Positions 47,052 through 50,773 of a DNA stretch of 64,000 bases are shown one piece after another. A model generated the notes under the pieces. That model did no database searches, had not been told where the DNA came from, and worked only from the letters and a program-made list of their open reading frames with translations. The DNA lies in assembly GCF_056712565.1 (NCBI RefSeq), contig NZ_CM160072.1; one strand, written 5' to 3'. How positions within the stretch are numbered: position 1 is the stretch's first letter; every line of letters begins with the position of its first letter. Made by a program: the position numbers and the translations under genes.

Positions 47052-49041
47052 TCAGAAATGCATATTGGCTGTGAGCAAGAAGGTTCTTGGCTCGCCCGGG
47101 TGATAACGGTAGCCGCTCTTATTGATTGAGGCGACGTAATCGGTATCAAACAGGTTGTAGACGTTTAGCTGGAAGTCGAGATTGCGATTAACCCGATACC
47201 CCAGTTTGGCGTCGGCGACCCAATAACCTTCGGTAAATGCTGGCGTCCCCACCGCGCCGTCTGAACCTTTATGCATACTGCCGATATACCGTGCGCCCGC
47301 ACCAACAGAAATATCATCGGTTGCCTGATACTGGCTCCATAAGGTGAAGGCGTGTTCCGGGGTATACGGCAGCGATGAGGAACCATCCTGGGCAACATCT
47401 TTGCCGTTTTTGATAGTTGCTTTTTGCTGGGTATAGCCGCCAATCATCTGCCACGCGGGAGTGATATTCCCGGCCACGGATATCTCGTAGCCTTCGACAC
47501 GTTTCTTACCATATTGCGAATAAGTCCCGTCATCATTTTGCTCAACTTCATTTTCAATATCAGTACGGAACAGCGCGGCGGTAAGTAGCAGGCGTTTATC
47601 CAGAACCTGCCATTTGGTGCCAATCTCGCTGGTGTTGGCTTTTTGCGGTTTAAAATCGGTGCGGTTGGCACTGTTACCGCTGCCAGACTGCGCAAGGGCG
47701 AAGTTGTTGCCGCCCGGCGGCTGCTGGGAAACGGCATAGTTAATATAGATATTGCCGTTTTCCGTCAGGTGATACAGCGCCCCGGCTTTCCAGTTCACCA
47801 GATTGCCCGACTTGGCGGTGTCGACGGTGGTGACCGGAGAACCTTTTGCCACGCCAGCAGGGCAGGTGATGGCACCGCGCCCGCTGCCGCCGCAGGCGGT
47901 GGCACTGTCATATTCAGTATGATAATTATCCAGACGGATCCCACCGTTCAGCTCAAAATCACGGGTGATTTGCAGCGTATCGAAGGCATAAATTGCGAAG
48001 GTATCCGTCTGACCATTGGCGTTTGCGCCGTTGCGCGTCAGGCCACCGGGATGAATGCTGCTGTCAGGATGATAAATATTTACCGCCGGTAACGTCACCG
48101 GATTAACGCCATAGTTAGTCTGTGTTTCGCGGGTAAATTCCACGCCGGTACTGACATCATGACCGATAGCGCCGGTATAGAACGTCGAGGTCAGGTTGGT
48201 CTGGTTGGTGAGAATTTTGTTACTCACATCTTTGGTATTCGCCGTACGTGACCACGTCCAGCTATTCACATCGCTGGTGGGCTGGGTAATATTCGACGCT
48301 CCACCCATAATCGCCGTCATCAGGTAATCCTGCTTTACGCGCGACCAACGCGTAGTGTTGCGAATGGTGGTGTTATCGTTGATGTCGTGCTCAAAACGCA
48401 TGGTAGCGGTGTCGGTGGTCGAATCGTCGTAATCGGAATCCGTGCCGTAAAAGTTATGAGTATCAACTTTTCCGGAATGATTCAGGGCCGCTGTTCCCGC
48501 AGATGGGGCAGAATAACCCGGTAAACCGATGGTCGGAATGCCGCCGTCTGGCGTGTTGTGTTGGGTGACATGCAGATAATTAAGATACAAACGATTCGCT
48601 GTACCAAGGCCAAAAGCGACAGAAGGGGCGACGCCGTAACGCTCATTTTTGACTTTGTCGCGTCCGGCATCGTGCGTTTTTTCGCCCATTACATTCAGGC
48701 GCACCGCAGTGGTATCACCAATGACCTGATTGACGTCCAGCGTGCCGCGGCGGAACCAGGCGCTGCCAATACTGGCGGAGGCGTCAATGCCGGAATCATT
48801 GCGCGGCTGTTTGCTGATCATATTGATCGAGCCTGTCGGCGCGCTGCGCCCGTAGTCGGTGCCGGACGGCCCTTTAATTACTTCGACCTGCTCGGTATTG
48901 AAGGTGTCGCGCGAGACGCTGCCGATATCGCGAATGCCATCGATATAAATACTGTTAGAGGTATCGGCACCGCGCATATAAATGGCGTCGCCAGTGGTGG
49001 AGTTACCGTTCTCACCCGCAAAAAACGCACCCACGCCGGGG
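47052..49041 (-). pseudogene. fiu: fiu 3' fragment (TonB-dependent catecholate siderophore receptor, C-terminal ~660 codons), separated from its 5' end by IS4
   Basis: 660-aa ORF with TonB-dependent receptor barrel, no signal peptide or TonB box of its own; N-terminal continuation lies at 50468..50773 beyond the IS. Confidence 0.85.
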
Positions 49042-50467
49042 TAATGCCGATCAGTTAAGGATCAGTTGACCGATCCAGTGGCTGTGTAAGAATCCGGAAA
49101 CGCTCACTTGTTTCCGGATTTTTTTATGCACATTGGACAGGCTCTTGATCTGGTATCCCGTTACGATTCTCTGCGTAACCCACTGACTTCTCTGGGGGAT
49201 TACCTCGACCCCGAACTCATCTCTCGTTGCCTTGCCGAATCAGGTACTGTAACGCTACGCAAGCGCCGTCTTCCCCTCGAAATGATGGTCTGGTGTATTG
49301 TTGGCATGGCGCTTGAGCGTAAAGAACCTCTTCACCAGATTGTGAATCGCCTGGACATCATGCTGCCGGGCAATCGCCCCTTCGTTGCCCCCAGTGCCGT
49401 TATTCAGGCCCGCCAGCGCCTGGGAAGTGAGGCTGTCCGCCGCGTGTTCACGAAAACAGCGCAGCTCTGGCATAACGCCACGCCGCATCCGCACTGGTGC
49501 GGCCTGACCCTGCTGGCCATCGATGGTGTGTTCTGGCGCACACCGGATACACCAGAGAACGATGCAGCCTTCCCCCGCCAGACACATGCCGGGAACCCGG
49601 CGCTCTACCCGCAGGTCAAAATGGTCTGCCAGATGGAACTGACCAGCCATCTGCTGACGGCTGCAGCCTTCGGCACGATGAAGAACAGCGAAAATGAGCT
49701 TGCTGAGCAACTTATAGAACAAACCGGCGATAACACTCTGACGTTAATGGATAAAGGTTATTACTCACTGGGACTGTTAAATGCCTGGAGCCTGGCGGGA
49801 GAACACCGCCACTGGATGATACCTCTCAGAAAGGGAGCGCAATATGAAGAGATCAGAAAACTGGGTAAAGGCGATCATCTGGTGAAGCTGAAAACCAGCC
49901 CGCAGGCACGAAAAAAGTGGCCGGGACTGGGAAATGAAGTGACTGCCCGCCTGCTGACCGTGACGCGCAAAGGAAAAGTCTGCCATCTGCTGACGTCGAT
50001 GACGGACGCCATGCGCTTCCCCGGAGGAGAAATGGGGGATCTGTACAGTCATCGCTGGGAAATCGAACTGGGATACAGGGAGATAAAACAGACGATGCAA
50101 CGGAGCAGGCTGACGCTGAGAAGTAAAAAGCCGGAGCTTGTGGAGCAAGAGCTGTGGGGTGTCTTACTGGCTTATAATCTGGTGAGATATCAGATGATTA
50201 AAATGGCGGAACATCTGAAAGGTTACTGGCCGAATCAACTGAGTTTCTCAGAATCATGCGGAATGGTGATGAGAATGCTGATAACATTGCAGGGCGCTTC
50301 ACCGGGACGTATACCGGAGCTGATGCGCGATCTTGCAAGTATGGGACAACTTGTGAAATTACCGACAAGAAGGGAAAGGGCCTTCCCGAGAGTGGTAAAG
50401 GAGAGGCCCTGGAAATACCCCACAGCCCCGAAAAAGAGCCAGTCAGTTGCTTAACTGACTGGCATTA
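49042..50467 (+). mobile_element. IS4 insertion sequence, 1426 bp, intact
   Basis: 18-bp imperfect terminal inverted repeats (taatgccgatcagttaag at 49042..49059; revcomp of right end taatgccagtcagttaag at 50450..50467); 13-bp direct repeats acccacgccgggg at 49029..49041 and 50468..50480; single transposase ORF. Confidence 0.88.
49126..50454 (+). CDS. insG: IS4 transposase (DDE family)
   Basis: ORF 49108..50454; start placed at [10 protein letters not shown] (442 aa); YREIK motif typical of the IS4 family. Confidence 0.85.
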
Positions 50468-50773
50468 ACCCACGCCGGGGACGTTTTTGAGCGCGTCGGT
50501 AAGGTTGGTTGCACCCTGATCTTTAATCACTTGTTCAGAAATCACCGTCATCGTGCGGGTAGTATCCGCTACCGGACGCGAGAATTTCGGATCGGCAGAT
50601 TGTTGTGGCGCATAAAGCGAAGGCGTTGATGCTTCGACAACCAGCGTGTCATCCGCGTTAGCTTGCCCTTCGGCAGCGAGTGCCTGCGCCACAGGCGTAA
50701 TACCAATACAAAGACCGGCAAAGAACGTGAGCGAATGAAATTGTCTGGCAGGGAAATTGCGATTGTTTTCCAT
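50468..50773 (-). pseudogene. fiu: fiu 5' fragment (signal peptide plus TonB box/plug start), ends in stop inside IS4 end
   Basis: 102-aa ORF MENNRNFPARQFHSLTFFAGLCIGITPVAQALAAEG...DTLVVEAS...LKNVPGVG; the PGVG codons are the duplicated target that reappears at the start of the 3' fragment. Confidence 0.85.

Follow-up and report, generated by a model that had tools for sequence, protein, structure and literature searches.

The reference for the IS4 family is the IS4 copy of Escherichia coli K-12 (insG, b4278), an element of 1426 bp with 18 bp ends and a 442 aa transposase, which lies intergenically between yjgZ and nanX and is flanked by a 12 bp target duplication. Duplications of 11–13 bp are described for this element, and the older literature gives AAA-N20-TTT as the consensus of its targets. 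The classical site-specific insertions, in galT and in the pheST attenuator (1979–1984 literature), were laboratory selections in which one preferred site within a gene was reused in both orientations, with duplications of 11–13 bp and a pseudo-palindromic target of A- and T-runs. Insertion sequences in catecholate-uptake genes have also been selected by cefiderocol, among them cirA::IS and a copy of ISKpn8 located between fiu and ybiX (bioRxiv 10.1101/2025.02.14.638246).

The window analysed here, a stretch of 64,000 nt from contig NZ_CM160072.1 of assembly GCF_056712565.1, carries an IS4 that matches the K-12 copy in length, ends and transposase, and both have AAA and TTT 20 bp apart in their targets. 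This copy is within a coding sequence, fiu, rather than intergenic, and its target duplication is 13 bp rather than 12 bp. The insertion site in fiu shares the properties of the classical sites, being reused in both orientations within the gene, yet it is a natural polymorphism found across lineages and not the product of laboratory selection. As in the cefiderocol-selected cases, an insertion sequence disrupts the fiu-ybiX unit, although the element is a different one and is located within fiu, not upstream of ybiX. Drug exposure is part of those cases but is not indicated for this strain, and cirA lies outside of the window. The features of the element and of the interrupted gene are as follows.

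49042..50467, + strand: complete IS4 element, 1426 bp (near-identity to K-12 IS4 and to insG of relatives)
49042..49059, + strand: left terminal inverted repeat TAATGCCGATCAGTTAAG (repeat comparison)
50450..50467, − strand: right terminal inverted repeat TAATGCCAGTCAGTTAAG, read inward (repeat comparison)
49126..50454, + strand: IS4 transposase gene, 442 aa from ATG (open reading frame and Pfam/NCBIfam)
49029..49041, no strand: target-site duplication ACCCACGCCGGGG, promoter-distal copy (direct-repeat listing)
50468..50480, no strand: target-site duplication, promoter-proximal copy, fiu nt 294–306, codons 98–102 (direct-repeat listing)
50465..50773, − strand: fiu 5' fragment, 102 codons and then a TAA from the IS4 terminus (open reading frame and Pfam)
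47052..49041, − strand: fiu 3' fragment, the rest of the plug and the whole barrel, with neither signal peptide nor promoter of its own (open reading frame and Pfam)

The inserted element is IS4 (IS4 family, IS4 subgroup), as judged by its length and ends, the size of the duplication, the domains of its protein and its identity to the K-12 copy. It is ~1.4 kb with 18 bp imperfect terminal inverted repeats that start 5'-TAATGCC and agree at 16 of 18 positions; there is no other such match in the window, where 0.02 would be expected by chance. Against K-12 IS4, 1425 of 1426 nt are identical, the sole change being A1242G, which alters one of the 442 amino acids (I386M), and the insG resident in the closest relatives is 100% identical to it. 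The transposase contains the Pfam domains Nterm_IS4 (residues 18–109, 7.6e-33) and DDE_Tnp_1 (residues 126–352, 3.7e-31), scores 299.6 bits with NCBIfam NF033592 (cutoff 115) and has a readable Y-x2-R-x3-E-x6-K signature, Y(2)R(3)E(6)K. With a start at the TTG at 49108, which is in frame and 5' of the ATG, the protein would have 448 aa, as in the RefSeq annotation of some genomes. The open reading frame and both ends are intact and match exactly those of copies whose movement is evident in related genomes. No RNA feature inside or adjoining the element was found in an Rfam scan of the window.

Both copies of ACCCACGCCGGGG are identical and their length is inside the range for IS4. Excision of the element with one copy of the repeat gives a fiu of 2283 nt and 760 codons with no internal stop, which is 100% identical to fiu of the closest relative, strain Z0117EC0054. 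Global alignment with K-12 fiu has exactly one gap, of 1439 bp, the sum of 1426 and 13. BLAST of the whole window against strain Z0117EC0054 returns two blocks, 1..49041 and 50468..64000, which share 13 bp of the subject and have only 2 mismatches in 62.5 kb; the IS4 insertion and these 2 SNPs are the only differences over the 64 kb. The original prediction, which had been made from the letters of the window, described a complete 1426 bp element with 18 bp imperfect ends and a single 442 aa DDE transposase, flanked by a 13 bp direct repeat and, because the fiu frame resumes across the duplication, inserted simply, and it expected the 1426 bp insertion and 13 bp duplication to be seen against K-12. 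This observation is confirmed, coordinate for coordinate. It would have failed had the reference fiu carried the same segment or had the repeat not been single-copy there; the 1.4 kb segment is absent from fiu of K-12 and of strain Z0117EC0054, and the 13-mer occurs once in the K-12 gene and once in that strain.

There is no intact fiu in the window, the gene being split after codon 102 by IS4 and closed at once by the TAA. The reconstructed protein scores 1505.9 bits with the Fiu equivalog model NCBIfam NF007349 (cutoff 686) over residues 1–760 of 760, with the Pfam Plug domain at 68–168 and the barrel at 257–728, a plug and a 22-strand barrel being the domains that define this TonB-dependent receptor. 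Besides the signal peptide, the 102 aa N-terminal fragment retains the TonB box (DDTLVVEA, residues 41–48) and roughly a third of the plug. The earlier claim that the signal peptide and TonB-box region are severed from the barrel therefore stands, both being on this fragment, with the refinement that the break is within the plug domain and not between plug and barrel. Truncation after residue 102 would leave a 660-codon remainder of the gene that lacks a promoter, a start context and a signal peptide, and for these reasons a functional Fiu receptor is not expected in the outer membrane. Function is almost certainly lost through inactivation of fiu by IS4, and the interpretation given with the original prediction is supported. 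Fiu is one of three catecholate receptors.

Among 5426 complete E. coli genomes, ~73 (~1.3%) contain IS4 at the same site in fiu, ~30 with the orientation seen in the window and ~43 with the opposite one. The first figure is 31 matches less strain M15, a false join. The second was obtained with the full-length 3722 nt query, giving 46 matches, less 3 genomes in which IS4 is in the mcbA-fiu spacer adjoining an intact fiu. A count of 143 opposite-orientation carriers from an 1826 nt query was rejected; IS4 makes up 78% of that query, so look-alike targets passed the 80% line. Target duplications among the carriers are 12 or 13 bp. The carriers are spread over many fiu alleles and at least 12 independent events are therefore indicated. 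Alleles in RefSeq from FDAARGOS_1252, VR50, HS13-1 and ECONIH1 have the same insertion point as the window and share a split annotation, in which a 'TonB-dependent receptor plug domain-containing protein' pseudogene, IS4 and a 'Fiu' pseudogene follow one another. The best same-orientation carrier is 99.4% identical to the window. The combination in the window, of an O1/O2/O18:K1-group fiu allele, a transposase antisense to fiu, a 13 bp duplication and a lineage-specific IS4 variant, is absent from the 5426 genomes. A full-text literature search on IS4 insertion or a pseudogene in fiu returned no relevant paper. The element and the kind of lesion are both already known, and this is an ordinary mutation.

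The sequence on either side of the duplicated core provides a potential basis for the choice of this site.

49020..49028, no strand: left arm of the IS4 target, AAAAAACGC (read from sequence)
50481..50488, no strand: right arm of the IS4 target, ACGTTTTT (read from sequence)

Together, AAAAAACGC-ACCCACGCCGGGG-ACGTTTTT is a pseudo-palindrome with an A-run and a T-run around the core, and is terminator-like (A6...T5). A target profile was built from 42 independent non-fiu IS4 left flanks in metagenomes, using left-end flanks only and assuming that the arms are symmetric. Its features are an A-run at −21 to −16, a C-rich tract at −14 to −9, and G at −4 and −1. Under this profile the fiu site ranks 3rd–4th of ~62,500 positions in the IS-free window. 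The top-ranked site is the ompX/opgE convergent terminator, where 5 complete genomes carry an IS4, and this occupancy supports the profile. IS4 targets are called terminator-like here on sequence and fold only; stop-to-stop frames of 73–244 aa span 5 reconstructed metagenome targets. It is proposed that IS4 chose this site because fiu codons 95–105 mimic the preferred target, in which a terminator-like pseudo-palindrome has an A-run in one arm and a T-run in the opposite arm. With this profile, likely landing sites of IS4 can be predicted simply.

Taken with the window's background, this suggests that an IS4 already resident in an E. coli of the B2 ExPEC/APEC type (O1/O2/O18:K1 group) recently moved into fiu by ordinary DDE transposition, with staggered cuts 13 bp apart that would generate the 13 bp duplication. 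Recent transposition of the resident B2 element into a target-mimicking site, with truncation of Fiu and a predicted polar effect, is considered very probable. Within this explanation, the structure, the identity of the element, the simple insertion, the recurrence at the site and the fit to the profile were computed here.

Recurrence at fiu might instead reflect positive selection for the loss of Fiu and YbiX, rather than target preference alone. The site is filled in ~73 genomes, against only 5 for the better-scoring and presumably neutral ompX/opgE site 10 kb away, the fiu::IS4 events are independent on many backgrounds, and fiu and ybiX, with cirA, have been tied to cefiderocol MIC in the literature. 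However, the carriers are rich in IS4, with ~6–7 places per genome compared to a median of 1 among IS4-positive genomes, and some of them, such as CH4796, OZ546925 and OZ546911, have both the fiu and ompX sites filled, as expected from a mutational burst. The fiu site takes only ~1.3% of all IS4 copies, the profile is not a calibrated rate model, and a single fiu knockout raises the cefiderocol MIC only ~2-fold, as cited in PMC12480463. Positive selection is thus an improbable explanation of the recurrence, and the candidate agents, namely catechol-type antibiotics, microcins or another agent entering through Fiu, are named tentatively. It is similarly improbable that fiu codons 98–102 act as a conserved IS4 'landing pad', mimicking the terminator-like target, at which lineages with newly active IS4 repeatedly lose Fiu, and probably YbiX expression, and that this loss is more than tolerated, being favoured as a contingency-type switch through selection by, for instance, agents that use the catecholate receptor for entry. 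If this were true, fiu::IS4 would be a pre-existing first step to catechol-cephalosporin resistance in ~1% of strains.

For the age of the insertion, recent transposition of the resident element is favoured over inheritance of fiu::IS4 from an old ancestor or its import by homologous recombination from another carrier. The 22 kb to the left is 100% identical to many O1/O2/O18:K1 strains, and its IS4 variant (A at position 1242) is that of the resident insG in those relatives. An event within the lineage is indicated by the presence of only 2 SNPs in 62.5 kb relative to strain Z0117EC0054, in which the site is empty, by the resident variant of the element and by the identical copies of the duplication. 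It is also indicated because no carrier among the 5426 genomes shares the fiu allele, orientation and duplication length. Donor alleles do exist among the ~73 complete genomes with this site filled, and FDAARGOS_1252 (L001) has the same orientation and 13 bp duplication as the window. Inheritance or import is nevertheless very improbable: the reconstructed fiu has 21 differences from that of L001 and none from those of the empty-site relatives, the flanking 62.5 kb is only 2 SNPs from an empty-site genome, the IS4 of L001 is the common variant and not the lineage-specific resident one, and the carriers with an identical fiu allele (HS13-1, APEC 16-1068 and OZ546991) have the opposite orientation and a 12 bp duplication. 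A repeat copy misplaced in a short-read assembly is scarcely credible even though IS4 is multi-copy in related genomes, since there is a perfect 13 bp duplication of a single-copy target, which assemblers do not create, the position is exactly that of IS4 in ~73 independent complete genomes, and both junctions are contiguous with flanks that match the relative but for 2 SNPs in 62.5 kb.

The recent insertion may also influence the gene that follows fiu. The fiu-ybiX unit is listed as a Fur-target operon (PMC4676285), with its operon status also given in bioRxiv 10.1101/2025.02.14.638246, and the gene order and strand are confirmed in the window.

46159..46836, − strand: ybiX, PKHD-type hydroxylase, downstream of fiu (NCBIfam NF003972, 518.7 bits)
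49088..49123, + strand: terminator-like hairpin facing inward at the left end of IS4, 14 bp stem followed by U7 (fold prediction)
50438..50463, − strand: terminator-like hairpin facing inward at the right end of IS4, fiu sense strand, 11 bp stem followed by UCUUUUUC (fold prediction)

The left-end hairpin (−23.5 kcal/mol, z = −5.6) is directly 5' of the transposase start. The right-end hairpin (−28 kcal/mol, z = −4.0) has a U-tract 3' of its stem and is predicted to stop fiu transcripts. Transcripts from the Fur-regulated fiu promoter would enter the right end of IS4, meet this strong U-tract hairpin within 30 nt and, beyond it, continue as 1.4 kb of untranslated antisense RNA. Both ybiX and the distal part of fiu would therefore be expressed far less strongly from the Fur-regulated promoter. 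Polarity on ybiX is thus plausible. A terminator-like hairpin is already present between fiu and ybiX at 46853..46870, and because it may limit read-through in the wild type, the added polarity of IS4 could be smaller than assumed; wild-type ybiX may owe only a part of its expression to transcripts that start at the fiu promoter. A crude consensus scan, of a kind that could miss an internal or IS-borne promoter, found no site resembling a promoter at the left end of IS4 on the fiu strand. An outward IS4 promoter driving the distal fiu fragment or ybiX was considered and set aside, there being no such site at the left end and no signal peptide on the distal fragment.

The strain is predicted to lose one catecholate receptor, probably with lower YbiX. 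Loss of fiu alone changes the cefiderocol MIC ~2-fold, and loss of cirA as well changes it ~16-fold, as cited in PMC12480463, while ybiX/cirA double knockouts with KPC variants reach >32 mg/L (bioRxiv 10.1101/2025.02.14.638246). On the basis of this literature, rather than of the sequence, reduced uptake of catechol-cephalosporins would be expected, mainly in combination with loss of cirA, and the uptake of catechol siderophores may be affected. Since fiu loss alone gives ~2-fold and its combination with cirA loss far more, a strain with fiu::IS4 would be one mutation nearer to reduced susceptibility. Short-read pipelines may miss the insertion, and wherever 'fiu mutations' are scored against K-12 in surveys, fiu::IS4 is to be expected as a lesion that recurs independently of lineage.

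The fiu gene is present as two minus-strand pieces with a transposase gene between them, according to a sequence reading of 46800..51000 and the ORF listing:

50465..50773, minus strand, fiu 5' piece (102-codon ORF)
49108 or 49126..50454, plus strand, IS4 transposase ORF (448 or 442 aa)
47052..49034, minus strand, fiu 3' piece (660-codon ORF)
49029..49041 and 50468..50480, direct repeat ACCCACGCCGGGG, both copies identical (repeat finder)

The stretch between the direct repeats is 1426 bp. A search of the 64 kb for the pattern of its 18-bp ends gave just these two, TAATGCCGATCAGTTAAG and TAATGCCAGTCAGTTAAG, where 0.02 would be expected. 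All coordinates of the original prediction are correct. Its reading of a simple insertion with a 13-bp target duplication is supported: the two refuting conditions that it named were both checked, and neither refutes it. Excision of 49042..50480 restores an intact 2283-nt fiu, a single open frame of 760 codons identical to the gene of Z0117EC0054, the closest relative with an empty fiu site. A BLAST comparison of the entire window with 63 kb from this relative gives two blocks, 1..49041 and 50468..64000, which share 13 bp in the subject, with 2 mismatches in total. Global alignment to K-12 MG1655 has one gap, of 1439 bp; the reference fiu therefore does not already carry the 1.4-kb segment, and ACCCACGCCGGGG occurs once in K-12 fiu and once in that of Z0117EC0054.

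Judged by its sequence, the element is canonical IS4, as had been proposed. It differs from K-12 IS4 by one base (A1242G, giving I386M), and its transposase has the Pfam domains Nterm_IS4 and DDE_Tnp_1, passes the NCBIfam IS4 equivalog model (299.6 bits; cutoff 115) and contains the Y-x2-R-x3-E-x6-K signature. It matches the resident insG copy of close relatives at every base; that copy adjoins nanX and has a 12-bp duplication. Over the 22 kb left of fiu, the window is 100% identical to many complete O1/O2/O18:K1 ExPEC/APEC genomes, taken from strain names alone to be of the B2/ST95 complex; Z0117EC0054 is one of them. The flanks are identical, the lineage-specific IS4 variant is identical too, and the duplication copies have not diverged, which points to a recent transposition into fiu within this lineage.

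The reconstructed protein is Fiu over its full length (NF007349, 1505.9 bits). Domain search of this protein gives:

residues 68-168, Plug domain
residues 257-728, barrel

The target duplication is fiu nt 294-306 and IS4 lies directly after codon 102, so the break falls within the plug rather than between it and the barrel. That IS4 splits fiu is borne out, and with minor corrections such as this one the earlier description and interpretation stand. The 5' fragment ends ...NVPGVG, followed by a TAA made by the IS4 terminus, and the 3' fragment lacks a signal peptide. The interrupted gene is canonical fiu, and its disruption is of the textbook IS-knockout kind, with a functional effect that is predicted from the sequence.

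The same insertion site is used repeatedly. Searches of 5426 complete E. coli genomes used the whole 3722-bp region and a version with IS4 reversed. The same-orientation query matched 31 genomes, one of which (M15) is a false join; the reversed query matched 46, in 3 of which IS4 lies in the mcbA-fiu spacer beside an intact fiu. There are thus about 30 + 43 = 73 carriers (1.3%). IS4 is at the identical fiu position in all 13 carrier loci that were fetched, in four classes:

same orientation as the window, 13-bp duplication: window, L001, L011, L014
same orientation, 12-bp duplication: L010, L012, L013
opposite orientation, 12-bp duplication: L004, L006, L007, L009, L015
opposite orientation, 13-bp duplication: L005, L008

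Among the carriers, reconstructed fiu alleles are at most 74 nt apart and IS4 copies differ by 0-13 nt. HS13-1 has exactly the fiu allele and IS4 variant of the window, but its IS4 is reversed and its duplication is 12 bp long. L001 (FDAARGOS_1252) and L006 share one fiu allele with IS4 in opposite orientations, as do L009 and L015 (M15) with respect to L012. These comparisons show independent events on one fiu background. At least 12 independent events are present among the 14 sequences (13 carriers and the window). None of the carriers matches the combination of features in the window, which is therefore a further independent event. Dozens of RefSeq genomes already have the locus annotated as pseudogene, IS4, pseudogene. 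Full-text search of a literature library found no paper that mentions fiu::IS4 at this site, so the hot spot may be unreported. Two carriers, L013 (FDAARGOS_944) and H144 (AR_0077), have decayed further, through a frameshift in the distal piece of fiu or an approximately 18 bp shorter fiu::IS4 span, and appear to be older insertions than that in the window.

The hot spot is the expected outcome of the known site preference of IS4. Exact matches to the IS4 left end were found at 80 loci in metagenome contigs, 77 with at least 25 nt of flank; these represent 43 distinct sites, with 20 flanks at the K-12-type resident site and 1 in fiu. In the clear profile built on the 42 non-fiu flanks, an A-run occupies -21..-16, with 88% A at -18; positions -14..-9 form a C-rich tract, and G stands at -4 and -1. 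Many of the targets have obvious hairpins between A- and T-runs, such as AAAAAATGCCAGCC-CGAA-GGCTGGCATTTTTT, and look like terminators. Older work on IS4 gave an AAA-N20-TTT target rule, with which the profile agrees. It is also consistent with De Palmenaer et al. on the IS4 subgroup (PMC2266710). When every position of the IS-free window was scored on both arms, the fiu site, AAAAAACGC-ACCCACGCCGGGG-ACGTTTTT, ranked 3rd-4th among about 62,500 positions. The top-ranked target, at 60087, is in a terminator:

60073..60113, ompX/opgE convergent terminator ATAAAAAATCCGCCTCTCGGGGCGGATTTTTTT, between ompX (59542..60063, plus strand) and opgE (60113..61696, minus strand)

This terminator is empty in the window, but 5 complete genomes have IS4 at exactly that point, with both orientations represented, and this tests the profile independently. 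In a raw count of genomes, the fiu site is filled about 15 times more often than this better-scoring target, which could hint at selection for loss of fiu beyond target bias. The profile is not a rate model. Carriers are rich in IS4, typically with 4-15 places each, the median among IS4-positive genomes being 1, several have both the fiu and ompX sites filled, and fiu accounts for only about 1.3% of IS4 copies in genomes and metagenome sample alike. Selection is therefore considered an unlikely cause of the recurrence, and target preference is favored.

Other IS4 targets are close by. An almost identical target to the ompX/opgE terminator, beside fumB, is also often filled. The lower-ranked hcxB/ybiE terminator (about 45076..45087) is filled in M15, where a second IS4 (L015 1503..2928) lies in the terminator-like palindrome with duplication GTCCAGTGGCGG, at a distance of 3.8 kb from fiu::IS4; both copies, in opposite orientation to each other, bracket ybiE-ybiJ-ybiI-ybiX-fiu'. 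In STEC17-190, and apparently 23CRST047 and 23CRST049, IS4 occupies the spacer between mcbA and an intact fiu, about 260 bp upstream of the latter, with duplication GTTACGTTGGTG (window 51023..51034; fetched locus L100 3744..5169), a third site within 6 kb.

PMC4676285 lists fiu-ybiX among the Fur-target operons, and a 2025 preprint describes the operon and connects ybiX, jointly with cirA, to cefiderocol MIC (bioRxiv 10.1101/2025.02.14.638246). The transposase gene runs antisense to fiu, and at each IS4 end an inward-facing hairpin precedes a U-run:

50463..50438, fiu sense strand, right-end hairpin, 11-bp stem then UCUUUUUC (-28 kcal/mol, z = -4.0)
49088..49123, plus strand, left-end hairpin, 14-bp stem then U7 (z = -5.6)

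Because of the former, transcripts from the fiu promoter would stop within about 30 nt inside IS4, or otherwise cross 1.4 kb of untranslated RNA. No outward promoter-like site was found on the fiu strand in the IS4 left end. Polarity on ybiX is a reasoned prediction. A GC-rich hairpin followed by UUUUU (46853..46870, fiu/ybiX sense strand), also found in K-12, immediately precedes the ybiX ribosome-binding site and resembles an intrinsic terminator or attenuator within the reported operon. With this already between the genes, ybiX may receive only read-through even in the wild type. The fiu-ybiX spacer has 174 bp (46871..47044) more in this lineage than the 41-bp spacer of K-12. This extra BIME-type insert contains two REP-like palindromes and is bounded by repeated TGCGCCCCAC; in fiu::IS4 carriers of other lineages the spacer is short, as in K-12.

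At three metagenome loci (L039, L059 and L064) and one with the resident left flank, the left and right flanks of IS4 have no duplication in common or come from two different targets, through recombination between IS4 copies or else chimeric assembly. IS200C is nested within IS4 copies of several genomes (search matches H8, H9, H44 and H45), including fiu::IS4 copies, which suggests a preferred IS200C target inside IS4. Rfam scanning of the window found two features that are ordinary for the region:

24841..24985, plus strand, Moco riboswitch upstream of moaA (103 bits)
45217..45287, minus strand, REP-derived naRNA4 element (72.7 bits)
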